This document shows positions 18,601 to 61,546 of a stretch of 64,000 nucleotides of DNA, piece by piece. The notes beneath the pieces are model-generated. The model made no database searches and had not been told where the DNA came from. It was given only the letters and a program-made list of their open reading frames with translations. The position numbers and the translations under genes were made by a program. Every line of letters begins with the position of its first letter. Position 1 is the stretch's first letter. Source of the DNA: Blasia pusilla. Taxonomy: Eukaryota. The stretch covers positions 44,144,001-44,208,000 of the forward strand of contig CM114271.1 in assembly GCA_050084515.1 (NCBI GenBank), written 5' to 3'.

Positions 18601-20878
18601 GGTATAAGTGCTACATTCCATCCTCTAGGCAAGTTATTATTAGTCGAGATGTTTTCTTTTATGAGCTAAAGTCATGGTATGCTCCATCTGAGCCTATTCC
18701 ACCTCTAAACTTGTCTGTTGAGGGGGGAGAATATGACTATAAACCAACATATATTGTCTTCAACTTCCCCAAGTACTAGTGTAGGATTAGGAGAGGTCCT
18801 AGATTCATCAGTTAAATCTGTGAGTCCATGGACAGGAAGAGTACATATTCACTCTGTTGACACTAGTCAGAGCTCGAGTCAAGTGTAAGAGGCATCTACC
18901 TCTGAACAACAACCTTGTAGATCAAGTAGAGTTACACATCCAGTTCATAGATTCATAAATGAAGGTTTCCTTGCGACACATCATGCATATATGATGACTA
19001 CCCTTCAAGAGCAAGAGCCGAGTTATTTTGAAGAAGGTGCGAGTAAAGCCGAATGGATTGAAGCTATGGAGGAAGAGCTTGCTGCATTAAGACATCCAAA
19101 AAAATAGGAGTTGGTTGATATACCTTCCGGTAAGGAAGCTATTGGTTGCAAATGGGTTTACAAAATCAAGCACAATCAAGATGGTACAATTAACACATAA
19201 AAAGCGAGACTGGTAGCTAAGCGCTATGCACAACAACATGATATCGATTATGAGGAAATGTTTAGCCATGTTGCAAAGATGGCGACTACAAGAATAGTGG
19301 TTGCAGTTGCAGTAAGTAAGAAGTGGAGATTACATCACATGAACGTCAAAAATGCCTTCTTGAATGGAAATCTATACGAGGAGGTATATATGACTCAACC
19401 ACCTGGATACGAGCATCCCAAGTTTCCATATCGCGTATGCAGGTTCAAGAAAGCTCTATACGTGCTCAAACAAGCTCCAAGAGCTTGGTATGGCAAGATT
19501 ACATACGTCCTACGAGAGTTGGGTTTTAGGGTATGTGATTCTGACTCCTTGTTATATGTCTTGAGAGGACAAGGTCATACAGTTCTCATTGTGTTGTATG
19601 TTGACGATCTCTTGATTAGTGGGAGTACTGAAGAAATGGTATAACAAGTCAAGCTTAAGTTACAAGCAAAATTTGATATGAAGGACTTGGAAGAACTCAA
19701 GTACTTCCTTGGTATTGAGTTTATCAAGGTTGGAGAGAGCATGTGGTTACTACAACGACAATATGCTCTTCATATGCTTTCAAAATATGGTATGAAGGCT
19801 TGTAAGCCAATCTCTACACCGTTGGACCAGAGCGTGAAGCTAAGAGTGGATGAAGGAGAGCTACTTGCATATTCTAATATATATATATATATGTGCATGG
19901 CTGGAAGTTTGATGTATCTAACTATAACCAGACCAGATTTGAGCTATATTGTGGGCCTAGTGAGCCAGTTTATGCAAGGACCTCGAAAACCTCACCTTGA
20001 TGCTGTGAGGAGGATTATGCGGTATGTGAAATTCTCTTATTCAATTCGGGCTTCAATTTGAACCTTCTCCGAGTTTTCAATTACAGGGATTCACAGATGT
20101 TGATTGGGTAGGAAGCGTGTCTGATCGACACTCCATATCTGGTTATTCATTTACTTTGGGAAGCGCAACTATAAGTTGGGCTTCAAAGAAGCAACCTACT
20201 GTTGCTCTATCTTCAACAGAGGCTGTGTACAGAGGAGCAACCAATGCAGCATGTGAGGCAGTGTGGCTTCATCGATTACTTGTTGAGATTGGTGTTAGTA
20301 ACTTACGACCTAGTGTAATATATGCAGACAATATTAGTAGCATCAAGATTGCTAATAACCCTATGTTTCATGCTCGTACAAAGCATATTGAGGTGCACTA
20401 TCATTTTATCATAGAGAAAGTGCTTGCAAGAGAAATTGATCTTGTATATATAGGTATAGATCAACAAATTGCTGACATCTTTACAAAGGCATTGTCTAGA
20501 AATAAGTTTGAGATGTTTAGAAAGGATTTAGGCGTTAGAGATATCGATATGAGCTTGAGGGAGGAGTATTGAAGATTGAGTTACAGTCAAGCTCATGAGA
20601 CACCTGAACTGCTACACTTGGTACTCACACGGAGTAGGGAAGCTTAATCTTGGTTAGTCAGTTAAGCACGATTATCTTAACTAGGGTTAGTTAATCACAG
20701 TTAGTCTAACTCGAGACTATGGTTAAGGGTAGGGTTAGGGTTGCTTGTACATACCCTATATAATTGAGAAGAGGACCAGCCTCCACTCATTCTCTGATTG
20801 CAAATTTTGTTCTCGATGGTGGTGTGTGTGAGAGAGAGTTGTTTTCCACCAGTTATTCTTATTTAGCAGTTTTCCACA
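15682..20878 (+). mobile_element. Ty1/Copia LTR retrotransposon, decayed; 5' LTR truncated
   Basis: 5' LTR remnant 15682-15890 matches the distal ~210 bp of the 3' LTR 20567-20878 (both end gttttccaca). PBS tagtatcagagc (tRNA-iMet type, TGG>TAG) at 15891-15902; PPT ttgagggaggag just before 20567. Confidence 0.95.
16408..20572 (+). pseudogene. Copia gag-pol polyprotein with multiple stops and frameshifts
   Basis: gag (YNVWKF, CNYCGIKGF), protease (WYIDFGASNHM), GAG-pre-integrase (WHKRIRH..CLAC), integrase (PQQNGVVERKNR), RT (LKQAPRAW, LYVDDLL), RNase H (RTKHIEVHYHFI), in Copia order IN-RT-RH. Confidence 0.95.
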
Positions 20879-21689
20879 GCTACAAGGTTGGAGTCATTTG
20901 ATCGAGGTTGGGTAGAGTACGTGGTAAGAGCCACGATATGGTTTTAGGAGAGTTATATGGTTAGGATTGAGAGGTATAATCCGTGTCGAGAGTTGATGAT
21001 GGAGTTTCAGTGCGCATGATGCCAACGGGTTGTCCGCGTATGTTGATGGGAAGACCGATTTGTTGTACGAAGAGTTGGTTGTGCTGCCGAGGTTCCCGAG
21101 CCACATGGAGGAGTGAGTGTTGATGGAGCAATTGATTGGCGGGAGTATTCAGGTTACCCATTCGAGTTCCTTTTCCCGCACTTGTCTCATGTTAGTTAGA
21201 GTGATGGGTTGGGTAGTCGCAAGTGCTAAATGGGTTCAATTATGGTGATGAGTGTAGACTTCTTTCATGTTTAGCATGTTTGTATGGCGGTTACCCAGTA
21301 GGGGTTGAGTGTATGACTTGAGCGTATGTTGGTGATTATTAGGTGAGATAGTCGAGAGGCTCAAGGTGAGCCTGAGTGTTGAGTGTGCGGGAGGCCGAGT
21401 GTGTCATCACGAGGTTACAATTAGCATAGGTGAGCTAGTGAGGAGTGCGGGAGATTCTTGGTGAGTCTGAGTGTTTGAGCGGGTGAGACAGGATGATCAT
21501 CAAGGCGTTCTTCTAGGGTTGGGAAGAAGGGGGTAGTTCGAGTATTAGTGGTGGTGTGACAGGGAGTGGAGTGAGATATTGAGGGGTTACGAGCAAGGAA
21601 CCACCTCAACTTCCATCTATAGCTAGATCGTCATCACTAAACAACGGGTTTGGTGACGAGATCGCAGACAGAGGCAATGTCACTTGGCA

Positions 21690-24390
21690 GGAGATGGACG
21701 ACATGTACATGAGCCATTGGGGTATACGTCATTTCTCAGGTGCAGTGGGTACCATCGACCTAGATGACTTCATCCAAGAGTTGACACATGGTACAACTTC
21801 CAGGAGATACAGACCGCGACACGGTTCAACCCTTTCATGGCATAGAAGGGGTTGTTCCAGCACTTGGAGGGTCCTCTGATGGATGATTACATGGATTTTT
21901 GATCGTTGTACTCAATAGAGATCAGTGCCTGGAGGATGTATAGGGCTCCATGGTATATATCCACTAGTGGTTGCGAGGCATATGATGGGATCGTGAGAGG
22001 AGCGAGACCCACACCATCAGGCCGGAGACTAGATTGAGAGGAGAGCAGTGATACATGCAACCTAGGAGAGACCTCTGGCGGTAGAGGGCCACCCAGCTTT
22101 AGTCCCCCAATGGAGTTCTTCCGACAATTGGGGAAGAGCTATCAGGGCGTACGCACCGACAAGCTGAAGAGTCTATAGGATTTTTAGCGATGATCGGGTG
22201 AGAGTCTAAGAGAGGCATTCACACGCATGCAGAGATTGATCATTGCGACATATGGGGTGATTAAGGCGCAGTCAGTGCATATTGGTTAAGGGTGTTGGAC
22301 AAGGAATTACGGAGGAGAGTTTGGGATGCAATGTTGCTTCACACAGCAAAGCCCACATTGAAGGTGGTCTTCGAGTTGTCTGAGCGAGTAGAGCTCGACA
22401 TGAGTGAGGAGCATGTAGTGACCATGGGATTTTTGTGGGATTCGAAGGGTCGACGAGTAGGAGTAGACCCACAAGTGCCCCAACATGCACCGGTACCACA
22501 GGAGTGGGCCGGTGAGCCTAAAGAGCAGGCCGGGTATCGTGAGCCGATGAGGCAACGGCCCGTACCAACATATGTACCCCAACAAGGACCAGGGTTGGCT
22601 TGTTTGATGTGTGGTGGGCCACATAGGCAGAGGGACTTCCCATATCATGGGAGAGGGCCACGCACATCTCCGATTGCTCAAGAGCCATAGAGGATGCCCC
22701 CACCACAGTTGCAGTGTGATCATTGTCATCGATATGGTTACACTAGGGATAGGTGTTTTGATCTTCATCGAGCGACACGTCCAAAGATAGGCAGAGGGCA
22801 TGGCGGTGAGAGAGTTGGTGGTGGCAAGGAGTTGATGATCGTGGTGGTAGAGTACTATCATCAATCACTGGAGATGGAGGACTTGTACCCAATGCAGCGC
22901 TCCTCACTCGCATCAATCAATTAGAGCAGAGGATTGTTGCCATGACGATGATGCAGCTAGTGATAGGCATAGAGCCGAGAGTATCTAGTGTGGCTCCAGC
23001 CTCCATGTCGTATCAGGATACATGGGAGGACTATATGGGATTAAGGTTTATGTATAGTGCGGCTCAAGTTGAGGTTGTTGCGGTGGTGACTCAGGTTATT
23101 GCAAGAGTAATCGAGCCATCGAGAGGTGGGGTGGAGATTGACCCACATGAGGGAACCGATGGGCGGCAGGCCAGGGTTCCCCAGTCGGTCACATTGTCGG
23201 AGGCACTACATACACCGTCGATGGTGTCTCGACGACCGATACTACCCACATGTGGGACAGGTACGTCAATGTCATGAGGAGTTGGAGAGACGACTCCTAT
23301 GCCATCTCGGGTGGAGCCAGTGCCGACCATGTTGTTGGAGGTGGCCACTAGGGTGAGCCACGCTCCGTTGTTTTCTGCCATGGAGTTGGCGACTTTGGGA
23401 GTTAGACCAGCGGAGGTGTTCCGGCTGGCCGCCACGTTATGTGAGCGTGGAGAGGTGACCACCTCTCATTCAAAGGTAGTTGAGGATGTGATGGACTTGT
23501 CCTCAGAGCAGGAGCTCGTGACGTTCCCCACTAAGTCATGGCATGTGACAGCGGCAAAGTTGGTAGATATGCCAGCTAGGCCAGCGATAGAGCGAGCCAT
23601 GATCACACTAGGTGTGGTGTTGTTGGATAACCGAGCAGGAGTGTTTTGCTTGGCTAGTCCCACAGATACGGTGTACCACCAGCAACACGTCCTACTTGGT
23701 TCAGGAGCGCAACCCTTGATGTTAGGGAAGGCGGAATTTTTGGCGTTGGGGTTACAAAAAGGCGACATTGAGCTTTTTCCCTTTTAGATACAGATCTCTA
23801 TTGGGGACGTATCACCCACGCAGTACATGATTCGACAAGAGTTGGTACTTAGATTCAAGCCAGAGCATGAGACGGATAGTGCGATGGTGCACACTCGGGC
23901 GATTACGACACCGGCGGAGTCGTATGATGTGTTGGTAGGGAGTACGGTGTTATATCCCCTTGGGTTCATTTTGGATTTTTGGGAAGAGACGGTTTCTTCT
24001 CGGCCAGTGTGGCGATCAGGTGATAGACGGGTGAGCCATCTACCAGTGTTGTTTGCAGGGAGTGGTGGTGATCAACCACGTGAGGATACGGTGACCACGT
24101 TGGCAGCATTCACAAGTGGTGTTCGATGATCAGAGGGTTTGGGGAGAGGGGCACACATACAGAAGACATTCCCGTAGCGGATAGTCCCACTTAGAGACAT
24201 GTCAGGGTGGGTGTCTCTTCCCATGGTGTAGAGCTTCTTTATTGTTGTTGGAGATGATTGTTGAGATGCGTGGAGTGCAAATGAGCTCGTGAGGCAGGCG
24301 TGGAGCCGTGCCTATGTTTGAAGCAAGGTACGAGAGTTTTAAATCTCTTCAAAGGGATCAACACGATGGGTTGCTGCAGTATGGCAGTGT
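21690..24390 (+). pseudogene. Gypsy gag (two zinc knuckles) + protease, truncated at methyltransferase motif I
   Basis: CLMCGGPHRQRDF and CDHCHRYGYTRDRC knuckles; VLLGSGAQPLMLG protease site; YDVLVGSTVLYPLGF; RVLNLFKG at about 24331-24356. Confidence 0.85.
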
Positions 24391-24462
24391 TGCGGGGACG
24401 ACGGCACTAATGGTGCCAGATGTATATAGGATGGTAGATCATGTTAGGTACATAGGTGTTTA

Positions 24463-25210
24463 CTATCTGGAGTTAGGGGGACCCAACTGCCAGCTAGGGT
24501 TGCGGTTGTGGGGTCTCAATGTATATGTGTGTATTTTTTGGTTTATGGATGGATCGACCCGTGTGTTGGGAGCAGCGATGTGTATGCGCATAACAGTTGT
24601 CACATCTTAGTAGCCGATAGGTAGAGATCTATCGTGGCGACGGCATAGAGAGCCAGCGGATTGTTTCGAGTGTAACTTCATCCCGAGGTGTCGGATGAGG
24701 TTGAGGATAGGTCCGTTGTGTCATGAACGTTGTTTCGGAAAACTTTCCTATTGAGGTCTTTCACAGCCGGGTGACTTGTTCACCACGTCACCTAGATCTA
24801 GTAACCTCTGCGTGAAGGTTACCAGAGGGGGTTGCTATTTTTAGGGGAAGAGCCTTTTGGCTCTTCCCATACCTATATAACGCAGGAAGATGGCTTTCTC
24901 AAGCCAACTTTCTCATGTTGGGCCGTTGGAGCACCTCTCTTGTTCGTGTGTGGGATAGGACTAGGGTGCTAGCGTCTGGATTCCTTGGTAGCGTAGGGTG
25001 GACGAGGCTCGACATGCGAATGTAGACTGAGGAGTAGAGTTTTAGGCCGGGTGTGCCATTTTTACTACTCTTATTTTTGTTGTGGGATCTTGATGTGTAT
25101 GTGTGTGTTGTTTGGTTTATGGATGGATCGACCCGTGTGTTGGGAAGATCGATGTTGTGTGATGTGTAGATGTGACCAGCGATGTGAGTTGTGTAACGAT
25201 GTGTATGTTG
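24463..25210 (+). repeat. 3' terminus: PPT block + B1 (~24505-24595) + gt + A2 (24598-25078) + B2 (~25079-25210, end eroded)
   Basis: ggtttatggatggatcgacccgtgtgttggga occurs in both B copies; junction gcgcataaca-gt-tgtcacatc; A2 aligns to 49101-49580. Confidence 0.85.
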
Positions 25211-29459: not shown

Positions 29460-32400
29460 TTATCGTGTGCGCATGGTCCTCATGCAATCTTTAACCATTG
29501 TGAGTATGCGCGGGAATTCAAAGAATGCAATAGATGCTTCACCCTCTAGCCCTACACGGGTACATCGATTGTTCCCTGACAAGTTGTTACATGGGCTCCC
29601 TCCAACGACGAGGTCAAACCCACCAAATCGGGAGACTAGCTTTCTTACTACATCCAAATCTAATTCGTTCACGTCGTGATAATCATGAACAAGAACACCT
29701 CTCTGCCTAGTACTTTTCCACCAGTACTTTAGAACACTTCTTGCATTTTCATCGATTTCAACACTGACTACGACTTTTAGATGTATCCCCAACTTATGCA
29801 GCGCCACTTCTGCCCCTCCGATTCCAGTGAACAGAGACAAGACTCTCATGCCTAGAGGGAACAGGGGCTTCAACACCGACAAGTGATAGGCGACGGTGTT
29901 TACCTGGTAACTGTTTCCCAGCAGCTTGGCTCGGTTTATGTTTGAAAAGACACTCCGAGTGTGATGTCGATTGAAACCCATGATTATCTCCGTCTCTTCC
30001 ATGGTTAGAGGGGACAATTCATAGCTGTTGTGCCATACAAGATTCCATTTCCTTGCCCAAAACATGAAATCCGCTTTCTCGTCTTTAGTGGGATCCCTAT
30101 CCTCATCAATCGATTTTTGCAAACACTGCATAACTTTCCGTCTCACAAAATGTGATGCAATCGATGTATTTATGGTACACAACTTCACCCGATCATCCCA
30201 CCTTGGCCAGCTTTTATCTGTGCAGTTATGATCCATTACAGCTTCCTGAATGGTCATAGGTGGCTTGGGAAGGAGGTCAAGCCTGCCCTCTACTGGCAGG
30301 TTATGTATGTATCCTCGAGGCCTCCGACAGGCAGTGAAGTTCAAAGAATCAACAAACTCTGGTTTGATGTTGTATAAATGCCTCTGAATGTTCTCCCACG
30401 AACCCTTCGGGGTCGTGCAAACGTTTTCAAAATAAAAGTACGGTGGGCCCTTCACATCTTCCGGAAGATATCGGGGAATCACTGGGTAACCTGGTACTCC
30501 AAAACCTGTTCTGTTAGTTTTGATTTTGGGGATATCTCCTGGAGAGGGCAGGGCCCCACGTTCCACACGCTTAGTTTTGAGTGAAGCATTTTTTCGTCGT
30601 TTGACTGGAATGCTTGAAAATCCATCCTGCTCAAGCATTCCCCAGACGCACAAACCACCAATGTTCAGTGAAGAATACCACCATCAAAATGGCCTTCAGA
30701 ATGCCAAATTTTTTCATTCCCAAGTGTATGTTTTGGGAAACACAAGATGGAAAATTGGAAATATTCTGCATGAACATGGCAGCAAAAGCGATTTCCCATG
30801 ATCTCAGAACAAAACTTTCCATCCCAGCAGTTGTTATTCTCTTCTGCAAAGGGCAATTACCTTGCTCGACCGTTTGCCAGATTTAGCGAGATAAGGCATA
30901 GAGAGCTTCTGGTCATCATCCTGTCCCAAAATTGCAGAATACACAATGACAATAAGAACCCATCTGTGAATCAGTGCTCGTGATAGTTAGAATGCAAGGA
31001 CAGGAAGATAGAAGCCTATCTCCACAGGAGATAAGATGAAATAACTCACATCATCTTCAACGTTGTTTCGAATACATTCCTCCTCTGCCTCGTACTCCAA
31101 AGCCTCAATGAAGTTAACAAGTTCATCAATCTCACCATCAGCTACAACCAGCCCTCTCCATGGTTAAGGACTTTCACCCAAGAAAAGAATACAAACTGAA
31201 GAGAAACTCTTGCCGAGAGAATGCGAGCGATAGTGAGCAAATACAAGCCACTGTGGATAACCAAATTCCAGGGAATCTGTAACTCGGACGATACATACCA
31301 TAAGAATCGAGGGCTCTTTTGCACGCAGGAAGTGAATATTCCATTTTCAGTAACTGTCTGAGCTTCACCCAGTATGGCGAACTTCCCTCGAGAAACTCTA
31401 TGAGGTCATCCTCAGATGCATCTTCCCCTGAATCCCACGACCCCAGTGCCAGTTCTGACTTAGAGAGACATGGCGTTGTGTCCCGACACCTTAGCACCGA
31501 CTGGATTCAACACTGGGCAAGTAAAGGCTATGGCGTTTAAAGTCCAACAGTTCACTGCAAGTGATGGTCAACAGATATAACTAAGGGGTAAGAGGTAAGG
31601 GAGTCACCCATACCACAAGCCTCAACAGCTTGAGATGCGTTGTCTGGATTGAAACCCATCATTACCAATGACTTAGCAGGTTTCCCTTGAAGACATTTTT
31701 TATCAGGCAAAAGTAATTCTGAATTGTTCATCTCCTCATCCAAGTACTGGTCCTCACCCTTCAAACACAAACGAGAATGTTGCTTCAAAAGTTGTTAAAA
31801 CAAGTGACAATTACAATTGCTACATAATGCACAACCTATGACAACATATCATATTAACAGAGCAGTGATCCACATTTATGAGTGAGGCAAGGAATATATT
31901 ACATGGACACTTGACCATGCAGCAGACCCATAGACTTATACTAGAAGGCATGACCCTGCTTTCAATGCTTACCCAATCGGGATCACTCTCGGGATGTATT
32001 TTCAGATGCCTGAGGATATAATCGCAAAGTTCATCTAGACTTTTGTCCTCTCCTGCATGGATCAGACACTTGAGAATCAGATATTATAGAAGAGGAAAAG
32101 CCACAAAAAAATACACAAACACCACAATACTACTGTGGTTGTTGTCAAAGGCACCTAACATTATGGCATCAGAGTGATTCAGTGGGAAAACTGGTTAAGT
32201 CAGAGAGAAGCCAACCACAAGTTTGAAAAGCTTGTTCCACAAGCTTCTCAGCAAAACCCATTCTTGAAAGGGCGGCTTGCTTTCCTCCTTCTTCTGACTC
32301 CTGGCCCCATGGATCTGAATCCAGGCCCCATGGCTCTGAATCAGGGACATATGGCTCTGAATCCGACCCATAATTAACCTCCTGTGGGAAAATGACCACC

Positions 32401-34534: not shown

Positions 34535-36799
34535 TAGGGCTCCTAAATTCCGGGTACGGTCGGGTTTGGAGGGCCCCTGTTATGGATAATCCCCGTTCGG
34601 GGCGTTTCTCCACCTACATCCGAAATCGTCCACTCGGGAGAATTGAGAAGGAATAAAATATATGTAGAAAAAGGATGGGAAACCCATCACGATACAAAAG
34701 AGGGGGCATGGACAGCCAAAAAATAGACCTCAAGAGACTTTTCCCTAACGACCAAAGACAATATCAGCAACACCTAGAGAATTATGACTACTACTAAGTG
34801 GGCCTCTAGCATTGGAGTCTCCAACCGCCTGAGCCCGCCGAAGAAGCCCATTTGCCTGGGCGCGCTGCAAAGCTATGGAGACCTGTTGCCTACAATAAAG
34901 TATCGTAGTGGCTAAGGATAACCCATTTCTCGACTGGAGATGATGGGCGCAATCCGTAAGGAACGAGTCAAACCTCTCCCCCATCGCCTCGTACATCTCA
35001 ATGGCTAGGGGGATAAATCGATATCCGTCATGAAGTCGACTATAAATGTGGGTCTTCTTGATCGCCGCCGCCGCCACTCCTTGTAGCGATCTCCCTTGTG
35101 CTACCACTTGGGCTCGCACCGCCTCCCGCGTAGGATCCGTCACCACAACATCCGCTACCATCACCTCAGACTCCCTTGTCATGTAGAGATCATCACGGAT
35201 AAGGGAATCCCGCATGGGGTAGTGCCTCTCTCTTTGTACATGGAATCCACTCTCCCGAGCAATAGAGAACATAATATCCCGCACTGCATCGTGAGTGGCT
35301 ATCCTCTCACCCCCAACTGGACACCGTGGCAAATGCACACCAAGTGGATCCAGACTCCGGCGACACTCGCAATGTGTCGAACCAACACCATTTGTTGGGG
35401 CAGGCCCAGTCAAAACCTCATCGCTGTAGTGTAGGTAAGTGGTGCGATGCGGAAAGCCGGGATGAGGGGACGAGCCCCCACCCATGAGCCTGCCCCCTTT
35501 CCGGAGCAAGAGCGAATACGGGCCCGAACCTCCATGGGGATATTCCTGTCCGACGTAGCAACTCTAAACAATGCATCAAAGTGGGCTTCCATCAAAGAAG
35601 ATTGGAGCCCAGACTGTCCGGTGGTAACTAGGGAAGAGAAAGCGGGAAGAATTGCTCTAGCCTCAACAAGAAGGGAGTCTCTACAAGCTGTGAGTGAAGA
35701 CTGAAGTGGGAAAAGACCATCCTCAACCTGGGAAACGTACTGTAAAAGTAGCGGTCTATCCCTAACAAAAAATCGGGAGCAAAGGAGGGGTGCTACAGTG
35801 GCCCAACTCCCTAAAAAGGCTGAAGACGCCACTAACTCAGTCGCTATGAGACCTACTCCACCAAAGGCAATCGGCCAAGAAGCTTGTCTACGAGCTAACT
35901 CCCCCGCGGGGCGCACTCTAATGAGCCGGGTCATAGAAGATCCCCAAACGCCTGCATAATCTTTCTATCAAAGGATCTATACAAGGAAGAAATATGGCTA
36001 GCCGCCCACACGGTCCTACACAGATAACCATGTCTACGGGAAAAACATAACGAGAGGATTCCATAAGCTACTTGAGGGTCACCAATCCTCGTGAGATCGT
36101 CGACATGAAGAAGATCCTCGGTAAGAGCCGCCGCCACAAAACTCGATACAAAGCCCTGGCTCCCGAGTGGGACTCCCAAGACGCGAAGCCCTACAGCAGG
36201 TGTCAAAAAACCGTCGGGTAAATGAATAACCGTTGACAAGCCTAATGAAGACCAAGCCTTGCACTTTCCCACCTTCACCGCAAGGCCGACGTGTGCCAAC
36301 TGTGCTGAAAAGTGCTGAAATGCAGGAACAACCAAGTCTCCAGGGCCAACAATGTGAGTATCATCTGCCAATGAAGGGAAAATACAACCCGGGAAAGCCT
36401 CCACTATAGAAAGAACCGCTCGATAATGAGCCAAAGCAAACAATGCACCACCCAAGGGATCACCCTGACTCGTCCCAGTAGTAGACTCCAAGACCGTGAC
36501 CTCCTCCTTGAACCTACCGTGGTGAAAATAGAGAGTCGAGGGGGCCCCATAAAAAGCATGCATGAAGGGAATCAGACTCGCTATGGGACCCCCTGCGTCT
36601 CTCAGCTCCGTGAAGATAGCTCCGTGAATGCCCGAGACATTGAGTTAAAGGCGTTCTCCACATCAACTTGGAGAACCACCCACTCGGGATGTATATCTAA
36701 ACAAGCCCTCAAACCTAAGGCTACAGCCTCACAACCGGCTGGCGTGGCAACTCCGAACTGGTGCGGACTAAGATGTGACTGGAGAATTGAGTAGCCCTA
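34535..36799. mobile_element. Small TIR element (hAT-like MITE, ~120 bp) split by the CRE-like insertion
   Basis: Left end tagggctcctaaattc; right end reverse-complements to tagggctactcaattc. The halves join when 34648-36791 is removed. No clear 8-bp TSD. Confidence 0.55.
34648..36780 (-). mobile_element. 5'-truncated CRE-like non-LTR retrotransposon (RT + CCHC + restriction-like endonuclease)
   Basis: HQFGV, VDVENAFNS, GTSQGDPLG, LADDTHIVG (RT); CEC..HLPRC, HDAVRD, RDDL..VADVVV, FIPLAIE (RLE). 11-bp TSD ggagaattgag at 34637-34647 and 36781-36791; few frameshifts. Confidence 0.88.
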
Positions 36800-41296: not shown

Positions 41297-46969
<5,673 letters not shown>

Positions 46970-46989: not shown

Positions 46990-47830
46990 CCAGATGGTTC
47001 TGCTGGGGGACGAGAAGTTGAATTTTCCTGTGGGGGTGGTAGATATGTCTGTGGAGGAGGTAGAGGTCCGTCACCTAGACAAGTCAAGGGAGACTCAAGA
47101 CGTGAGGCTAGGATTGCTACTCAGATAGAGCAGTTGCAACAATTGATTGTCGTGATAGCATTAAGATTACCCGATGCCAAATCATTGGCATCTATATCAA
47201 ATGGAGAAACCACATATATTGAGGATCCTGGTTGGATATACAAGGCTCTAAAAATGAAGGAAGTCGTTATTGTTGAGCGTGGAGCAGGCAAAAAGTTGGA
47301 TCTACAGAATGGGGAAGTCAAGAAATACACCAAGCTTCCTCAGTATTTTAGTTTTTGTGAGTCGACAAAGGATCCCATTGATGCATCTTTATTAGAGTTC
47401 AAGATGTATGGTTTTCAGCTTCCAATGTTGGGAGGTATGTTTTCCGGCTAGTCGCTATGCTATGTGGGCGTAGAGGTGGTGTTACTCCCTCACGTTTAGA
47501 GGTGCTTGTAAAGGAGGCGATGGACCTATCGTTGGAGCCTATGATTGGGTTTCCCACCTCAAATTCATGGCACCTTGCGGATGCTAGGATGGCGGAGATA
47601 CTCGCTAGATTGACCTACCATAGATCAAGCGTGCTATGGTTTCTCTTGGTGTTTGTTTATTCGATAACTAGGGAGAGGTGTTCCATTTAGTGAGTCCAAG
47701 AGGTAGAGTGGTTTTTCCGCAATGCTCTTGTTCGATTCAGGAGTGCATACAATCCCTAATGTTGGGGATGGCAACGTTTACAAGATTAGGCCTGACGAGG
47801 GCTATTATGGAGTGTTGCTATGCAAGATAC
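46990..47830 (+). pseudogene. Diverged gag/protease remnant of the Gypsy-DNMT family
   Basis: [39 protein letters not shown] correspond to parts of 52200-53150. Confidence 0.65.
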
Positions 47831-49374
47831 ATACATCCTTCGATGGATCGATGTTGTATAATAAAATCACCCACTATGTAAACTCCTCTCTTAATAAGTG
47901 TTAGAGAGAGTTTTATTAATATTAAGTAAATTAGCTTAGGAAAATAAAAATTCCATATTTAAACCTCTTTAGGATGGCTTATTTGTATGGGCCCAACTTT
48001 AAGAAAAGAGATAATAAGTAAAAGATGGGAGTAAAAAAGTAAAATAATGGGATTAGTGTATTAATGAAACAAAAGCAAAAGTAGTCTTGGTGGGTAGCTA
48101 GGATAGTTAGGGTAGTTTGGAGGATATGAAATGAGTTGATGAGGATATTTTGGAGGAGATAACATGTAACCTACTTATATCAAATGGAGATTGGCTAAGC
48201 CTTGAGAGGAAGCCATGTGGCACAAGATAACATTAGCCCCAGTTTGTACTCTTGAGGATCCCTTGTGAATACATAAAGAGATGGGAACTTCAAGAGTTCA
48301 TCACCTTCTACTTCATTTCTTGAGTTCTCGTGTCAATCTTGAGTGGATGACATTGGACTTGCTTGCTATTCCAGTGAGAATGGATTATCCCTCTTGAGAG
48401 AGTAATTTGATCATGGTCTATTCTTTGAGAGGTTTCTAGAGTGTGGTATGTGAGGAAATGAGAGACTTGTCATCTTCGGGAAATTTAGTCATACTAGAGA
48501 TAATGGATGGTTTTGGCTTGTTATTTTTCTATTGAGTGTGGATTATCCCTCTTGGGAGAGAAACTCCGCCAAAACCCATTCCTAAGGAGAGTAGAGGATG
48601 TCTGTCAAGTATGGATAGGGAAGGAACATGAGTTATACCTGATTTTCCTTTCCTTAACCCGTACCACGTGAAGATTCTCTTTACAGATAGGCACTAGTGT
48701 ACTCGCTATCTAGTTTACCACTTTAGGGAGGCATTCATGAACCATGTCATGCAAAGGGAGGACATGGGATTGTACATTGTATGTTCTTATATAGCAACTC
48801 ATCGATATTAACAGACCTGTTTGAATAGGATTTAACACTAGCTGTGATATTTTTCTTGTGTACAAGCGTAAACTAGTATACAGAGACTTCATGGTTAGGA
48901 ATTTTGGGGTTTGATGTTGTGAAGAAGTGATCGCCTCGACACTACTATTCATGATTCTTGTCGTGAAATAATGGTGGGTTTATATAATAATTTTGTACTG
49001 AGAAAAGATAACTTCATATAGAGTTCATCTTGCATCAACCATGTCCGCCGTAGCTAGAAGGTCCGCCTTTACTCGAAGAAAAGCTCTCAGCACAACAACG
49101 TGTCACAATTGAGTAGCCGATAGGCCGAGATCTATCGTGGATAGGGCGTATGAGCTAGTGGACTATCTTGAGTGTAACTTTTTTCCAAGGTGTCGGATGA
49201 GATTGAGGATAGGTCCATTGTGTCAGGAATGTTTTTTCTGATAATTTTCATGTTGAGGTCTTTTACATCCGGGTGACTTGTTGACAAAGTCACCCGCCCC
49301 TGATAACCTGTGTGCGTAGGTTACCAAAGGGAGGGCTATTTTTAGGGGAAGACCCTTTTGGCTCTTCCCAACCC

Positions 49375-49594
49375 TATATAAGAGAGGAAGGTGGCTTTCC
49401 TAAGCCATCTTTCTCATGTTAGGCCGTTGGAGCACCTCTCTTCTATGTGTGTGAGATAAGACTAGAGTGCTAGCGTCCGGATTCCTTGATAGCACAAGGT
49501 GGACGAGGCTGGATATGCCGATGTAGATTGAGGATTGGGGTTTTAGGCCGGGTGTGTCGTTTTTACTACTCTTTATTTTTACATGAGAAAGATG
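49375..49594 (+). promoter_or_regulatory. TATA box, predicted TSS and self-complementary primer-binding site
   Basis: TATATAA at 49375-49381; catctttctcatgt at 49406-49419 is the exact 14-nt reverse complement of acatgagaaagatg at 49581-49594, immediately after A1. Confidence 0.7.
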
Positions 49595-51409
49595 TCATGG
49601 GGCTAGTGGGAATTTTTTGTGTGCAGGTAGGCAAGCGAGTTGCCTTGGTCGAGAGCCCCTGGAGACGTGTGTGTTGTAGGTGTTGGTTATTTTTCTGTTC
49701 GGAAGACCGTGGGCGGAAGCGCTGTCCAATTTTCTCAGATTTTGCTGGTGCGGATTGATGGGGGACAACAACCGAGTGAAGTGTATGGTGGGGCGTTGGG
49801 TGTACGCGAGTGAGGGATGTCGTGAGAGAGAAGAAAAGAGCAGGTTTGAGTCTTGTAGCCGCCGGGGGGCTATCAAGTAAAAGCGGCTAGCTAGGGGTCT
49901 AGAACTAGGGTTAGGGCGTGTAAAGCGGGCAGAGTCATTGGGGCCGCGAGAGTTGTGTCACCGGAGTCACAAGGACCGGGAGTAAGAGCCGAGAGCCTGA
50001 ACCCGCGCGTCAAGAAGCGCCGTGCGAGGAGGTTGGACGGCCGGAAGGGAAGAGAGAGGGACGGGCCGCGTGCCCATACAGGATCGCGGCTCCATAGGGA
50101 GCCGCGTAGGTGTAGTTAAGGGGTTAGAAGAGAGTCGAGGCTACATAGGGCAGCATGCAGCCTGCTAAGCTGGGAGATCCAGGGATGGGAGTGCAGAGCT
50201 GGCGCGTACCACGTAGGTTCGTCTAGGGCTCTAGGGAGCCACGTGAGCTCCTAGGGTCGCGTAAGAAAGAGGAGCCCTACATAGGGCAACGTGTCGGCAG
50301 AAGGGAGAAGCAGGGCCACTGCCCCATAGGGTTGCGTGCCCTCAACGGGCCACATAGTCCCAAGGCCCCGTCAATGGCTAAGGCCGCGTCAAGCAGGGGA
50401 ATTAGTCGGAAGGAGCTGAAGAAGTAGCAAGATTCCAAAGGGAGCCGTGCCAAGGAAGAGACGGAAGAGGGCATGTGAAGAGCCCATGAGCGGGAGTTAA
50501 AGCGTCCATAGGGACGCATGTGGGTAGTGCGTACACGTGGAGACTAGGTAAAGCAAGGACGTTGGCCGTGATAGAAGTAGAGACGTGGTATAGAGCTACG
50601 TGGTGAGACCAGATGGGTTGGGTCCGTTCGCGAGCTAGTGTGGTGGGATTCACGATGAGCGTGGCTAGAACTTTGTTGACTGGGGGCGAGACAAGTGATC
50701 CGCACCGATGGTTTGCGATGGAGTGTTAGTATGTTGATGCCAATGGGTAGTCTGCATCCAGTGATGGGAGAGTTGATGTGTGTTCGAGGAGAGTATCGTG
50801 CTACGGAGATTGCTGCATCACATGGAGGAGTGCATGTTGACGGTATGTAGGTTGGTGGGCATGATCAGGTTACCCATTCAGTCCCTTTTCCCGCACTTGT
50901 TGTGTGTGATTGAGAGTGGTGGGTATCGGGTAGTAGCTGGTGCTAGGTGGGTGCAGTGATGGTGACGAGTGTAGATTCTATTCATGTGTAGCATGTTGGT
51001 GGATATACCGCGGTTTCCGAGTAGGGGTCGCGTGTATGACCCGAGAGAGTGTCGCTAGGTTAGGTGAGTCAGTTGGGGGGCTCATGGTGAGCCCGAGTGT
51101 TGAGTGTGCGTGAGGCCAGGTATGTCATCACGGGATTGATGTTAGCATAGGTGAGTTAGTGAGGAGTGTGGGAGACTCTCGGTGAGTCTGAGTGCTTGCG
51201 CGGGTGAGACATGGTTTGTCATCACGGCGTTCTTCCAGAGTTCGGAAGAACGGAGTAGTCACGAGCAGTAGTAGTGGTGTGACACGGAGTGAAGTGAGAT
51301 ACCGAGGGGTTGCCAATGAGGAGCTACCTCGACATCCATCCGTAGCTGGATCGTCATCACTAGACATTGGGTCTGGTGACGAGATTGCAGACAGAGATAG
51401 TAGTACTAA

Positions 51410-54400
51410 ACAGGAGATGGACAACATGGGCCATCGGTGCATGCGTCGTTTCTTGGATGCAGTGGGCATCATTGACTTAGATGATTTTATCCAGGAGTTC
51501 TTCCGATAGTTGGGGAAGAGTTACCAGGGCGTACGCACCGACAAGCTGAAGAGTCTACAGGATTTTCAGCGACAATCGGGTGAGAGTCTGAGAGAGGCAT
51601 TCACACGCATGAGGAGGCTGATCATTGCTACGTATGGAATGACTGAGGCGCAGTCAGTCCAATATTGGTACGGAGTTCTAGACCGAGAACTACGGAGGAG
51701 AGTCCGAGATGCGGTGCTGATTCACACTAGCGAAGCTCACATTGAAGGTGGTCTTTGAGTTGTCTGAGCGTATTGAGCTCAACATGAGTGAGGAGCAGGT
51801 AGTGACCGCTAGATTTTCTTGAGAGTGGACGGGTCCACGAGCGACGGTGACCCCACAGGTGCCACAACGAGCACGAGTACCATGGGAGTAGGCCAGTGTG
51901 CCTAGAGAGCAGGGAGGGTACCGTGAGCCTATGAGGCAATGACCCGTACCTACATATGTTGCCCAGTAGGGACCGATGTGGTCTTGTTGGCCGTGTGGAG
52001 GGGCCCATAGGCAGAGAGACTGCCCACAATATGGGAGAGGACCACCAACGCCTCCGATTGCTCAGGAGCCACAGAGGATGGCTCCACCACAGCACCAGTG
52101 TGACTATTGCCACAAATATGGTCACACTAGGGATAGATGTTTTGACCTTCGCCGAGGGGCACGTCCAGAGGTAGGCCGAGGGCCTGGGGGCGGTCGTCCT
52201 GGAGGAGGTCGGGGAGTCCTTCTTGAACGTGGTGGTAGAGGACCACCACCATCCAGAGGAGATGGAGTAGGAGCACCAGAGCCGCCACTTCTCTCATGCA
52301 TTGATCAGTTGGAGCAGAGGATTGCTGCCATGACGATGATGCAGCTTAGGGAAGGCACGAAGCTGCGAGCAGCTAGTGTGACTCCAACTTCTACCTCTTA
52401 CCCTGACCCGGGTGAGGATCTCGCCGGTATGGGGTTTATGTGTAGTGCAGCCCAGGTTGAGGCAGCTGCAGCGGTGACTCGGGCTGCTGCGAGAGGCACG
52501 GAGCCATCGAGAGGTGGAGTTGAGATTGACCCACCAAAGGGGACTGATGGGCGGCAGGCCAGAGTTCCACAGTCATTCACATTGTCGGAGGCACTACACA
52601 CACCATCGATGGTGCCTCGACGACCAACGGTGCCTACAGCTCAGGCATCTACGTCGACGTCACGAGGAGTTGGAATGCCAACTCCTATACCGGCTCGAGT
52701 GGAGTCAATGTCGACCATAGTGTTGGAGGTGGCCACCAGAGTGAGTCAGACTCCACTATTTTCCGCCATAGAGTTGGTGACGTTGGGAGTTGGACCAACT
52801 GAGGTGTTCCCGCTGGCCGCTATGTTGTGTGAGCATGGAGAGGTGAGTGCTTCTTGTTCAGAGATAGTTGAGGAGGTGGTGGACTTGCCCTCAGAGCCGG
52901 TGCTCGGGACGTTCCCCACAGAGTCATGGCATGCCTCGGGGGTGAAGTTGGTAGATATGCCAGCTCGACCGGCCATAGAGCGAGTTGTGGTGACACCTGG
53001 AGTAGTGTTAGTGGATAACCAAGCTGGAGCATTTCGCTTGGTTAGTCCGACAGGGAGAGTATACCACCCCTAGCGCATCCTACTTGATTCGACAGCGCAA
53101 CCCTTGATGTTAGGGAAGGCGGCGTGTTTAGCATTGGGGTTACGGAAGGCCGACATTGAGCCTTGTCCCTTCTAGATATAGACCTTGATTGGGGGCGTGT
53201 CACCCACGCAGTATATGACTTGACAAGATATAGTTGTCAGAGTCCAGCCAGAGCATGAGACGGATAGTGCTATGGTGCGCACATGTGCAATTATGACACC
53301 AGCTGAGTCGTACAATATGTTGGTGGGGAGTACAGTGTTATATCCCCTAGGATTCATCCTGGACTTCTGGGAGGAGACCGTTGCTTATCGGCCAGGATGG
53401 CGGTCAGGTGACGGCCGGATGAGTCAGTTACCCGTGCAATTTGTGGGACGAGGTGATCGATCACGAGGCGAGTCTGTGACCATGTTGGCGGCTTTCACAG
53501 GTAGTGTTAGCGGGCTAGGAGAGTTGTTGGAGGGGAACATACATGCGGAGGATGTCCCAGTAGCAGATAGACAAGCCATGGCGGGTGTCTCTTCCCATGT
53601 TGGCGAGACCTCTTCACCATTGTGGGGTACAACTCGAGAGCTACAGAGGAGTGTCGACGACCTCGTGAGGCAGGCGTGGAGTCATGCTTTTATCCCAGAG
53701 CAGCAAGAGTCACGTGGCGATCAGGCTCTTGGAGTGGAGACATTGACCCCACTGGATACCACACCCGTTGTGTGGCAGTGCCCAGAGGAGGGTGTTAGGG
53801 TGTTAGATCTCTTCGGAGGGATTAGCACCGGATTGGCTGCAGTATTGCAGGCGGGCATACGGGTGCATCAGTTCCTTCATGTGGAGAGATATGAGACCGC
53901 ACGGCGAGTATCATTACGTCACGTGGCGAGATTGGTCCAGAGGTATCGTGAGTTGTTGCCGATATCTGCAATACGGGGATATCACCATACACTACCCGCC
54001 GACATCTCTTTGGTGGGGGCGCAGGATCTGGATAGAGTTGGCACCATCCATTTGGTGATTGCCGGATGGCCATGTCAGGGTCATTCATCAGCTGGCCGAG
54101 GAGTATGATTGCAAGATCCAAGGTCAGGGATGTTTTGGGAGATGCTGCGAGTAGTACGACACTTGCAAGAGAGTCAGACATGTTCTCCAACGTACATCTT
54201 GGAGAACGTGCCATTGTTGGGAGACACTCGTGCACGTGTGATGATGAGTGTGTATCATGTGAGGTCCTGGTTGGGACATGGTGTGTTATTAGATGCGGCG
54301 CGAGTTGGATCACGTGCCCATCGTCCACGACTGTGATGGATGAACCTGATACCATCAGAGGTACTGAGTCGAGCATATGATGGAGTCCAGAGAGCACCAC

Positions 54401-54930
54401 ATCTCATAGTGGATGCTATTTTGGTCTTAGGGCGTTGATCTCAGGTGGTGACACAGGATGATAGACCACCGTTGGCCATTGCCAATCAGGTGGGGGAGTT
54501 GAGGGCAGCCTTACCTACGTTGGTGAGCTTCCCAACATCCCATGCCTTTTGTCAGGGAGGGCCGGGCATGATTTGGGATGAGGTGACCCGAGCATTGGAG
54601 GAGCCTACAGCAGATGAGCGCGAGAGCGCCATGGGGTTCGCTACCGGTACTACTGCGGTGCCAGGGATGACTGAGGCATCTCGGAGACAGGTGTTGGGGC
54701 ATGCGATGGACCTCAACTGTCTCACATGGATAGTCAGCCTAGATATGGCTGAGCAGAGACGGATGCGAGTGTCATCCATGCCATCACGTCCACGAGTTGG
54801 ACCATTGCCTATAGGGTCTGTACATGCATTGGCTGGGGGCAAGACGAGGAGAGATAGGCACCCATGGACTTCCTGGGACGTCGTTCGAGCAGAGAATGCA
54901 AAGGCGGCTAGAGTAGCACATGTTGTGTGA
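51410..54930 (+). pseudogene. gag - aspartic protease - DNMT3-like C5 cytosine methyltransferase polyprotein with premature stops
   Basis: ORFs starting at 51976, 53272, 54109 and 54445 share one frame. Knuckles CWPCGGAHRQRDC and CDYCHKYGHTRDRC; ILLDSTAQP; VLDLFGGIS (I), HVE (II), GWPCQG (IV), ILENV (VI), AHRPRL (VIII), ERESAMGF (IX), RRQVLGHAMD (X). Confidence 0.92.
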
Positions 54931-55039
54931 TCTCCATGTATATGTATGAGTTGATTTTTGTACATGTGTGGATTGACTCATGTGTGGGGAAGATCGGTGT
55001 TGTGTGGTAGATATGTATGCGCATGACAAGCGAGTACAA

Positions 55040-56153
55040 CGTAATTCATCACCCAGCATAAGGTCATGGTAAGGATTTGACCATATATCATTAGATGAGT
55101 TTGTGGTTCAAGCCAAGGCAACAATGACCAATATGAAGTCTTATGGCGTCTTGGTTGGAGGAGTCATGTTGCACCAAATGTGGAAGCCCCTCGATTATTG
55201 GAAGGAATCAACGTCCTACATACCAAGATGGTAGTGAGATGATGGGCAACTAAGCTCTTTATCTGTTTGATTCATGAGTGGAGTGGTCGAGTGACGAATA
55301 GGAGAGATAGCGACTCTAGCAGCATTCAACAGCATCATCACAAGGCTTGATGATTTGATTGAGGGGCATATCCATGGAGGGGACACACCCGTGCCTAACA
55401 CTTCTATGGAGAGGAGTGTTATGATAGCCGCATCATTTCATGGAGGAGAGGTGTCATTATGGGGCTCGAGTGAGGAGCTTCGACGTTTGGCTAATGAGCA
55501 TGTGCACATGGCATGGAGCGAGATATTTGCACCAAAGCGTGAGAGATTAGAGGAACCAAGAGTGCTATGATGTCGCCTTTGGATACCACATACATTGTGT
55601 GTCGCATCCTAGAGGAGGGTATTCAAGTGTTGGATCTCTTTGAAGGGATTAGCATAGGGTTGGTTGATATTTTGCAAGTAGCAATGCCTGTGTAACAATA
55701 TTTGTACGGAGAGCTTGATGAGGTTGTAAGATGCGTCTCAATTCGACATGTGGCTCAATCACACTTTTGTTTTCCCGACTTGTTTGTTTACATCGGCCTT
55801 ACAAGGGTACCAAAGTTCCCTATTGAGGGACATTTCTTTGTTTTGGGCGCAAGATTTGGACCAGGTAGGGACTATTGATTTTCTTATTGCTAGTTGGCCA
55901 TGTTAAGGCAAGTTGAGTGTTAGATGAGGTATCGGTTTAGCAGACACTCAGTACGTATAGGTTGTTTTGGGAGATGATTAGGATCTTGCGATCCTTGCAA
56001 GAACATCAATCTCGTTCTCTATCATACATTTTGGAGGATGTGCTCATCTTGGGCAATTCACGATCACAAGTCGTGACGACTACACATCAAGTGCATGCAT
56101 GGATCGGCCCTGTAGTGTTTTTGGATGCCGCAAGTGTATGTTCACACCAGTAG
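55040..56153 (+). pseudogene. Older degenerate copy of protease C-terminus and methyltransferase
   Basis: EEGIQVLDLFEGIS, DFLIASWPC, FWEMIRILRSLQE..YILEDV, FLDAASVCSH; homologous to about 53300-54320. Confidence 0.8.
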
Positions 56154-59039: not shown

Positions 59040-61546
59040 CATGACCAAAGTCAGAGAGCTCCAACAGATCGTGAAGGAACATTGGGAAGAAGTATAGAGT
59101 GAAGGTGGAACATCAAGCAAATGGCAGTGTTAGTATTGTTTCTATTCTTTCAAAACCTATGATAGCACTCACATGATGGAGTATTTTACACGAGAGAGAC
59201 GAAAGATAAAGGATGGGAATCATGATACCCATCATGCCAAATCATGTGTGAAGGTCCCTCCTAGCATACAACGGGATCTCCGAAGAAGGGTACTGATGGG
59301 AAATGGACAAAGAAGGGAAGCGAGACCCTCGAGTGAAGTTGAGAAGATGACGCCATTACAAATAGGTTCTACACAAATAGGAAATAGTGTTCAGGTTGTG
59401 TCAAGTGTTGATGGGGTTGCGGACATGCCAGTGTGTGAGACTCTTGAGGAATGCAGAGAAGTTGTTGGGCCGATGCGAGGAAGTAGTAGTTCTGGGAAGA
59501 AGCAATTGATCTGAGGGATTCTTTCAACATGCAAGAAATAGAAGTTGAAATTAATATGTGGGCAAAGTATTTCTACAAATGTGGAATACCATTCAACGTA
59601 GTACGACAAGATGCTTTTAACGAAGCAGTTTTGGCAACAACAAAGGTGAAGGGTTACTCGGGTCCTATTTATAATTCGTTGCGCACCATCCAACTTGAGA
59701 AACATATGGGGAAGGTGAAGGAAAAGGTAGATATCATATTGGATAATTTGAGTTTAGGGGCCACAATCATCACGTATTCTTGGACCAATATAAAGAGTGA
59801 GTGTTTAGTGAACATTATGGTCTCGTGTCCACAAGATGAGATCATGATTGAGTCGGTAGATACCAAGGGGGAATCCCAAACGGTAGAATGGTTGGCAGGT
59901 CACATAGAGAGGACTATCATGTGCATCGGTCCAAAGAATGTGTTGCAGCTTGTGATAGACAATGTTGGAAATGAGCAAGCAGCAGGGAAACTAATTGAAG
60001 AAAAGTTTCCTCATATTCTTTGGGGTGGATGCGTATCACATTCTCTTGATCTAGTATGTGAAAAATGATGAAAATGTCCATGGATGGATATGATTTTTGC
60101 ACAAGCTCGTGAGATGGTAGTATTTTTGAAGACTAGAACTTGGGTGATGGCCGAATTCATGGAAACCAATCGAGTGAAGAGACGATTATTGCTTCCTACA
60201 AACACACGCTTTGCTACAAACTTTATCATATAGGGACATGTCTTAGAATTGAGGGAGGCGTTCCATGCCATGGTTGCCACAAATCCATTTAGGGAGTATT
60301 TCAATGGGAGGGATGCGAGGAAAAGGGAGAAGGCACGAGAAATTGAGACTATTGTGGCCAATCATGATTGTTGGATAAAGGTGAGGAGTTTTTTGATGCG
60401 GCTTTGCCAACTATCACTTTGTTTAGAGAGTGTGATGGTCATAAAGCAATGACGGGGCATATTTATAGCCGTATATTTGAGATAATGGAAGAGACCCGTT
60501 CTTTTCCAATAATCCCATGGCCAGGCGTGGGTGGAAGGTGTCGTGGTTCTTTTTTGACAATGTCCAGAGCTATGGATATGGTTAATGTTATTTCTAGGCG
60601 ATGGGCACTTATCCACAACAAGTTACATGCAATAGGGTGGTACATTCTCGCCCATTACAATCTTCTTGATAGTGTGCAAGACGTCACTTCAAATGTTGAG
60701 TGCATGAGAGATTTCGAAAAATATATGAAACTATATGCAAAGGGGGTGCATAGCCTCAATATCACGGAGGTAATTTCTTTTGTAGGTACTTGTTTGTAAG
60801 AGTTTGGCAACATTGTGAACCATCACAAAGTATTTGTGGATGAGTTTGGTAAGGAAGACGTCGATTCACTTAGTCCCTCTTATTAGTGGAGCATGCACAG
60901 TCAATGTGCACCAACATTACGCTATGTGGCTAAGTCTGTATTAGCACAAGTTTCTTCCTCTTCAGCAGAGAGAAATTGGAGTAGTTATGGTTTTATCCAC
61001 AACAAGCATAGGAATAAATTGAGCAATGAGCATGCCAGGGATTTGGTGTACATCTACACAAACTCAAGGTTTGGAGACAAGGATGTTTCTTGGAAATCAA
61101 GACAAGGACTCATGTACGAGCAATAATTTTTTGAAAGGGATGGACAATAACAAGCTATAAGGGTTGTAGAAGATGGTAGTGAGTCTAGCTTACATGCACG
61201 AAACCGTGATGGCAATCATGAAGATAACCTTGACTTGCAAGATGAGGGCCTATAGGATGTGGATGTGCTATCTGGAAATTATGGCACGGTTGGCATTGAA
61301 GGAAGTCAGGAAACTCATGTCGGAAACACTCAAAATGTTGACTGCGACGGGCTCGGAAGAGATGAAGATGACGATGTAATGGAACATTGGATTCGAGAGC
61401 ACGCTGATAAGCAACAACAGAGGACTTCAAGAGAAGTGAATCTACCCAGCACTTCAACTAACACAACCTACGACCCTCAGATTTTCGCACAAGTAGGAAT
61501 TCAAAATTATTCCACCGAGTCTTGTGAACCTATGCAAGATTCTTGA
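59040..61546 (+). pseudogene. hAT-superfamily transposase (DUF659-type), decayed
   Basis: CGIPFNVV, WTN, VIDN, GCVSHSLDL, TRFAT and the dimerisation motif SSSSAERNWSSYGFIHNKHRNKL; several stops and frameshifts; TIRs not confidently located. Confidence 0.88.

Follow-up and report, generated by a model that had tools for sequence, protein, structure and literature searches.

How reverse transcription is primed in a retrotransposon without a tRNA primer-binding site behind its 5' repeat is the question raised by a degenerate element found in a window of transposon-rich plant nuclear DNA (the whole stretch analyzed, 64,000 nucleotides or 64 kb). A preliminary description had claimed that no TGG-type primer-binding site follows the repeat A1 of this element, that the next 14 nt are perfectly complementary to a segment located 31 nt after the start of a TATA box, and that the family primes itself in the manner of Tf1, with the cDNA boundary at the end of A. 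In the analysis presented here, Tf1-type self-priming by the 5' end of the element's own RNA came out as the best reading, with a probability of about 75% as judged from sequence comparisons. Positions correspond to the plus strand unless otherwise stated.

The window element and its relatives

The element is a degenerate Ty3/Gypsy-like retrotransposon with gag, protease (PR) and DNA methyltransferase (DNMT) regions. Its repeat A1 (49101-49580), the R/U5-equivalent part of the long terminal repeat (LTR), holds the promoter and starts with TGTCAC at 49101, one base upstream of the BLAST estimate. This repeat is 82.6% identical to 24598-25078 in a self-BLAST, and the match between both A copies stops at 49580, which corresponds to 25078. 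Contig depth, determined in four public DNA runs of one organism, jumps from hundreds to thousands at 49102 and drops 3-5 fold past 49577, and it goes down in steps after 49611, in the leader. The end of the self-BLAST match and the fall in contig depth both uphold the repeat boundary that had been placed at 49580. Beyond 49580, the loose contig ends continue with GTTGTGTGATC..., the beginning of repeat B.

The untranslated leader (49595-51416) is 1.8 kb long, G-rich and unique in the window. It is followed by a gag region with two CCHC knuckles (51417-53073), degenerate and with in-frame stops, that aligns to the N-terminal part of P0004, and by the end of the protease and a C5 DNA methyltransferase with visible motifs I and IV (53224-54930). 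The reverse transcriptase (RT), RNase H and integrase (IN) have been deleted, and only gag-PR-DNMT remain. A decayed polypurine-tract region, GGCGGCTAGAGTAGCAC (54905-54921), homologous to CCAGCTAGGGGGG, precedes repeat B (54922-55028, GTTGTGTGATC ... GCGCATGACA), which is the right end of the insertion and whose first 17 nt are identical to the consensus of the loose ends found after 49580 in other copies of the genome. The candidate target-site duplications, AACG on the left (49097-49100) and AGCG on the right (55029-55032), match in 3 of 4 bases, and perfect 4-bp duplications occupy the corresponding places in relatives.

Copy X consists of an internal region with leader, gag, PR and the start of the DNMT (20998-24504), cut off upstream by a Copia insertion, followed by B1 (24505-24597), which is preceded by CCAGCTAGGG and ends in ...AACA and then GT, by A2 (24598-25078) and by B2 (25079 to about 25213); its A2 is thus followed by B2 and not by the bases found after A1. 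Copy V, which belongs to another family, comprises B1 (3886-4015), A2 (4016-4529) and B2 (4530-4633), with an open reading frame (ORF) for a PHD finger (3175-3702) upstream of its B1; the primer site predicted for family V was found nowhere on the plus strand of the 64-kb window. The Copia element (15682-20878), inserted into or next to copy X, has 209-bp LTRs that are 91% identical and, directly after the LTR at 15891, the sequence TAGTATCAGAGC, which differs by one change from a tRNA-iMet-type primer site.

Two other fragments of this lineage, much more diverged (32-55% at protein level by tblastx), sit directly after the window copy (55094-56144, PR-DNMT) and 1.3 kb before it (47032-47818, gag-PR). 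On the minus strand, an ORF (29463-30683) whose motifs are arranged as in a DRM-type (domain-rearranged) cytosine methyltransferase is probably an exon of a host gene, separate from the retroelement. The same strand holds a LINE with RVT_1 and a zinc-knuckle tail (41453-46118) and a second RT (34748-36644), whose C-terminal region resembles, by eye only, a restriction-like endonuclease. Other mobile-element remnants are a DUF659 (hAT-associated) ORF (59490-60065), a 637-aa ORF with a weak zinc-finger match (8644-10554, minus strand) and a weak helicase match (7984-8352).

The proteins closest to PR-DNMT were found in Marchantia polymorpha and Calypogeia fissa (53-57% identity) and carry PF00145, with Sphagnum proteins more distant (38-41% identity). 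A search with a gag-PR-DNMT protein profile yielded 80 metagenome loci (handles beginning with L). The near-intact relative L077 carries, according to Pfam, gag-asp_proteas, DNA_methylase, RVT_1, RT_RNaseH, Integrase_H2C2, rve and PHD; the order is gag-PR-RT-RH-IN, and the integrase is of the DDE type. In L077, rve and H2C2 were the only integrase domains detected and a tyrosine recombinase did not appear, and no chromodomain was detected by Pfam after rve, a PHD finger being present instead. RT relatives occur in Klebsormidium, Closterium and Chara, K. nitens proteins included. Among the best 120 RT relatives listed, the organism-named matches were from plants or streptophyte algae, except for two animal entries (a pseudoscorpion and a tapeworm), and none bore a Tf1/sushi name. 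No relatives were found among viral contigs.

The TG...CA ends, the 4-bp duplications and the polypurine tract are Ty3/Gypsy hallmarks present in these elements, whereas the two identical terminal LTRs are replaced by repeats split as A ... B-A-B. This layout, A-internal-B-A-B, is shared by relatives in liverworts and streptophyte algae. KnitGypsy-Dnmt3 of Klebsormidium nitens has been described with Gypsy domains, a Dnmt3-type DNMT inside Pol and a DIRS-like arrangement A-coding-B-A-B (PMC5890265, de Mendoza et al. 2018). A C5-DNMT inside a Gypsy-type polyprotein and the same arrangement of repeats were also found here, and the element belongs to the lineage described under that name. With Gypsy-like genes and a DIRS-like arrangement of repeats, it nevertheless has an integrase and target duplications.

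A complementary pair at the promoter and at the end of A1

The segment 49581-49594 (ACATGAGAAAGATG, x), which directly abuts the 3' end of repeat A, is a perfect 14-nt reverse complement of 49406-49419 (CATCTTTCTCATGT, x'), and x' begins 31 nt downstream of the start, at 49375, of the TATA box TATATAAG (49375-49382), in agreement with the preliminary description on both counts. From this complementarity and from the helix formed in predicted folds, x is proposed as the primer-binding site for the 5' end of the element's own RNA; from the TATA spacing, x' is proposed as the self-primer, corresponding to the predicted first 14 nt of the transcript. Exact matches to the 14-mer within the 64-kb window are restricted to x and x', and a copy with 1 mismatch at 24905-24918 is the homologous x' site in A2 of copy X. 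None of the 40 read-table rows listed, of 101 in all, contains a majority variant inside either 14-mer. Since this copy is dead (gag stops, RT-IN deleted), its perfect x/x' pairing is a relic. In one DNA run, the segment between TATA box and predicted start (49374-49441) shows a summed contig depth 10-100 times that of the remainder of A (about 300,000 versus 1,000-90,000), which may reflect a segment common to many subfamilies or a property of the library.

A comparative analysis has been carried out with the metagenome loci, 80 in number, none of which gave a BLAST match with the window A. Two families, F1 and F2, were defined by A1/A2 pairs from self-comparison of the loci. The A repeats of the window family, F1 and F2 share no BLAST-detectable similarity, and those of F1 and F2 match their own family only. 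In F1, GTTCTTTGAG starts 32 nt after the start of TATAAAG and CTCAAAGAAC constitutes the first bases after A1, with a perfect pairing of 17 nt in L028, L036 and L052. In F2, AGTTTTTCTAGAATT starts 32 nt after the start of TATAAAAGG and AATTCTAGAAAAACT spans the end of A1, with a pairing of 15 nt. Both families have a TATA at the place equivalent to that of the window copy. Three families with unrelated sequences therefore use the same two anchor points, 31-32 nt after the TATA and the end of A1, and in all of them the 3' arm starts 0-3 nt from the repeat boundary.

Covariation across families had been named in advance as a check on the proposal, and it was found in the form of different matched pairs at the same two places in F1 and F2. 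Within families there were no convincing compensatory double changes, and the association in F1 was weak and non-significant; the apparent covariation is that seen between three families, a small number. Perfect pairing of at least 10 nt was present at the canonical place in 11 of the 22 A1 rows of F1, 2 further rows keep 10-11 nt in a 5' extension of the canonical site, and the pairing has been lost by mutation in the other 9. In F2, 15 nt were paired in 4 of 6 rows, the other two (8 and 6 nt) having lost the pairing by mutation. These row counts include insertions present on two contigs (L005/L006, L023/L038, L028/L036, L064/L065 and L076/L078). A TATA-anchored scan of the 110,430 nt that precede gag yielded 21 matches, of which 11 were canonical pairs; as controls, the opposite strand gave 3 matches and 146,007 nt of downstream sequence gave none. 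Inverted-repeat scans and sensitive self-comparisons of L020, L031, L035, L054, L071, L072 and others gave no further families; L020 is a truncated F1 copy.

A perfect 10-bp hairpin, CTCAAAGAAC-ATA-GTTCTTTGAG, is located between the TATA and the predicted start in F1 (L028 1838-1860, for example), and its 5' arm is the x sequence. The F1 complementarity could partly reflect this palindrome, and the hairpin could mask x' in the 3' A copy, where the 5' arm is transcribed. A comparable local hairpin is absent in F2, and therefore the feature common to the families is the x'-x pairing. By reading of the sequence, a weaker hairpin with G-U pairs, analogous to that of F1, can be drawn at 49388-49415 of the window.

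The palindrome at the F1 site, together with the palindrome AATTCTAGAATT included in the F2 arms, would suit the view that the complementarity arose by chance, or as a by-product of local palindromes or simple sequence, and has no function. The same view can draw on a sliding control across the window, in which 10 of 9,053 positions reached at least 14 nt, a number that includes the x site itself and simple repeats. Nevertheless, a complement of at least 14 nt to the 22 nt after A appeared in none of 20,000 shuffles of A, in which the longest complement had 12 nt and occurred 4 times, and anchored 14-mers are expected by chance at a level of 1.6e-6. The recurrence of the same anchor points in three unalignable families also argues against it, as does the fact that the longest pairing was found in the best-preserved copies. 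The absence of function is thus extremely improbable; the x/x' complementarity is confirmed as real, and chance is excluded.

The absence of a TGG-type site directly after A1 was also borne out, the first TGG of the window copy being at 49598-49600, 17 nt downstream of A1. No TGG was found within 16 nt of A1 in the window family, F1 or F2, nor within 25 nt in F2. It could still be considered that a host RNA (a tRNA, a tRNA half or a small RNA) primes at or near 49581-49610 and that the match to 49406-49419 is secondary, because TGGGGCTAGTGGG is located 17 nt past A1 in the window copy and TGGGAGTAGTT about 23 nt past A1 in F1, and half-tRNA priming is described for plant Copia lineages in PMC6317226. 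However, a site located 17-23 nt downstream would put the intervening bases inside the repeat, and A2 passes immediately into B2. Taking into account also the lack of such a TGG in F2 and that three unrelated x sequences each match their own A, priming by a host RNA is very unlikely. No tRNA genes were found in the window or in 26 metagenome loci.

The x'-x helix closes both the minimum free energy (MFE) and the centroid folds of all three predicted 5' RNAs, that of the window copy included. The folds of L028 and L077 are unusually stable (z of -2.7 and -4.05), and the whole fold of the window copy is not (z = -1.0). The Rfam search gave only a chance-level match to FsrA (E 0.19, 19.9 bits versus a gathering score of 80). 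A helix that closes the whole R/U5-like region, like the 5' panhandles of other retroelements, would also be compatible with a selected RNA structure that has another role (packaging, dimerisation, translation control or strand transfer), the primer being something else. The position of the 3' arm, 0-3 nt from the repeat boundary in three families, counts against this because the first copied base must lie there to regenerate A, and no other primer site is visible nearby. A purely structural role of the helix is consequently regarded as unlikely, and self-priming is preferred.

Predicted ends of the cDNA and ends of the insertion

B1 is immediately preceded by a polypurine G-run in both copy X and copy V, and the same holds for families F1 and F2; the sequence is AGCTAGGGGGG in V and F1 and TCTGGGGGGGG in F2, decayed to AGCTAGGG in copy X. 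In front of B1, the motif CCAGCTAGGGGGG is common to copy X, copy V and F1. In position and appearance, the G-run before B is what is usual for a polypurine tract, and it is taken as the putative one. The inserted element, in turn, has A at its left end (TGTCA...) and B at its right end (...ACGACA), and it is flanked by 4-bp target duplications in L028 (AAGG), L023/L038 (CATA), L077 (GGTC) and L080 (CCAA), with none in L076. The internal B1|A2 joint reads ...ACA NN TGT..., where NN varies between families. The NN bases at these joints were GT, AT, GC and AC (window 24596-24597 and 4014-4015, for example), and they are missing from the outer ends of inserted copies.

Unrelated host DNA was found upstream of all 25 A copies that are followed by x (19 rows from 16 independent insertions in F1; 6 rows from 5 independent insertions in F2), and B1 upstream of all 9 A copies that are followed by B2. 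A reading of the DNA upstream of 49101 as a decayed B1, which would make a tandem joint, was rejected: the alignments were weak (score 28), and it is also opposed by the host DNA upstream of every F1 and F2 A-x joint and by the own B of the window copy and its duplication matching in 3 of 4 bases.

One A2|B2 junction (L063 15937-15952 and L010 5690-5705, two loci that look like the same insertion) keeps CTCAAAGAA, 9 nt of x, plus 6 other bases. Such a remnant is what a plus-strand stop product copying a short self-primer would leave, and as x copied onto the end of an A it is a further point against a purely structural role of the helix. In this copy the 5' part of A2 has been replaced by other sequence. 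The cDNA boundary proposed at the end of A in the preliminary description thus gained support from two sides, the putative polypurine tract 5' of B in four families and the x remnant at one A|B junction.

Unit-length copies, in which A-x-internal-polypurine tract-B is followed by host DNA, coexist with the A-...-B-A-B form. They comprise L006 (11127-11240), L016 (15489-15602), L007 (11942-12055), L020, L024, L039 and the window copy (49101-55028), with target duplications TGTT in L006 and ATTA in L016, and 3 of 4 matching bases in L007 and in the window copy. These copies may be direct insertions or B1/B2 recombinants; lacking a 3' A, they should therefore be unable to replicate.

As x is located directly 3' of A, the LTR seen by reverse transcription would be B+A, and with the tract before B and the primer site after A the inserted form would be a permutation of the cDNA. 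The A2|B2 joint then represents the cDNA ends joined head to tail, and for this reason the intermediate is probably a circle or a tandem-LTR form that is opened at the B|A site. A random opening of a two-LTR circle was discarded as the route: it predicts A-B-A-x-internal-B equally often, and none of the 21 independent A-x joints showed this arrangement. The path by which the cDNA becomes an insertion must therefore be asymmetric.

Self-priming model and known systems

According to the preferred reading, self-priming, transcription would start in repeat A about 31 nt after the TATA box, as predicted from the TATA spacing, and the first 14 nt or so of the RNA (49406-49419) would fold back and pair with the bases that immediately follow A. 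The RNA would presumably be cut by the element's own RNase H, which would release a short primer as in Tf1, and the freed 5' fragment would be extended at its 3' end back through A. Plus-strand synthesis would proceed from the G-run directly 5' of B. The resulting cDNA would carry B+A LTRs, its ends would then be joined by a route suggested by the A2|B2 joints, and the inserted copy would run from A (TG...) to B (...CA), with a 4-bp target duplication and permuted with respect to the cDNA. The same geometry found with different sequences in F1 and F2 supports the Tf1-like mechanism advanced in the preliminary description.

The extension of this scheme to the whole streptophyte lineage, with a self-primed cDNA bearing B+A LTRs, its ends joined head to tail and a DDE integrase inserting it through the internal TG/CA at B|A, is put forward tentatively and is rather doubtful at present. 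If it were true, the provirus would be a circular permutation of the cDNA, and DIRS, Ngaro and PAT elements would owe their split direct repeats to a similar scheme, which would also indicate where their primer should be sought.

Self-priming itself is already known and has been predicted for other plant lineages. The novelty would lie in cDNA ends, marked by the primer site and the polypurine tract, that are distinct from the ends of the inserted element, even though this element has an ordinary DDE integrase and generates 4-bp target duplications. The Klebsormidium layout, given without explanation in section 9 and the legends of PMC5890265, becomes a testable replication model, in which a cDNA intermediate with its ends joined head to tail is expected. 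The model also gives a clue to the tyrosine-recombinase retrotransposons of the same layout, one of which, DIRS-1, is presented in PMC7192593 as having an unknown reverse-transcription primer. Moreover, the family is very abundant in its host, with contig depth in the thousands, and this matters for the annotation of liverwort genomes.

Among known systems, Tf1-type self-priming is given in PMC4600332 as established for Tf1 and inferred for Tj1. The elements described here resemble Tf1, Tf2 and Tj1, of the Tf1/sushi group, in lacking a tRNA site and in that the bases following the 5' repeat complement the 5' end of their own RNA, which is a predicted end in the present case. The Tf1 primer has about 11 nt, and the arms found here, of 10-17 nt, are of similar order. 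Unlike Tf1/sushi elements, those analyzed here carry a PHD finger and a DNMT without chromodomain, the RT relatives listed are, apart from the two animal entries, streptophyte algal and bryophyte, and their repeats are split as A-internal-B-A-B instead of forming two identical LTRs.

Self-priming has also been predicted for the plant Tcn1 and TAR lineages (PMC6317226, Neumann et al. 2019). The Tcn1 chromoviruses of mosses and clubmosses and the TAR Copia elements share with the present ones that they are plant LTR elements with sequence-predicted self-priming and bryophyte members, but they have ordinary LTRs, unlike the split repeats found here. The main text of PMC6317226 contains no mention of Marchantia or of the DNMT/PHD lineage.

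The A2|B2 joint is similar to the junction of retroviral two-LTR circles, as it places the end of a U5 next to the start of a U3 and, in one copy, includes primer-site bases. Insertions of primer-site bases are a feature of aberrant retroviral circle junctions, and the two-LTR circles themselves are by-products. In contrast, inserted elements of the lineage analyzed here have the joint as a fixed component, and a circle would be an intermediate.

Another close system is KnitGypsy-Dnmt3, whose host is an alga, whereas the hosts here are liverworts or other bryophytes. In the literature searched, the name KnitGypsy or Gypsy-Dnmt3 was found only in PMC5890265, and section 9 and the legends of that article include no primer site, polypurine tract, target duplication or replication model. 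DIRS, Ngaro and PAT elements have been described with the layout A1 ... B1-A2-B2 (PMC4157794, PMC7192593), and the same split direct repeats were found here. They differ in the enzyme of insertion, a tyrosine recombinase in DIRS, Ngaro and PAT elements and, in the present lineage, a DDE integrase (H2C2 plus rve) accompanied by 4-bp target duplications.
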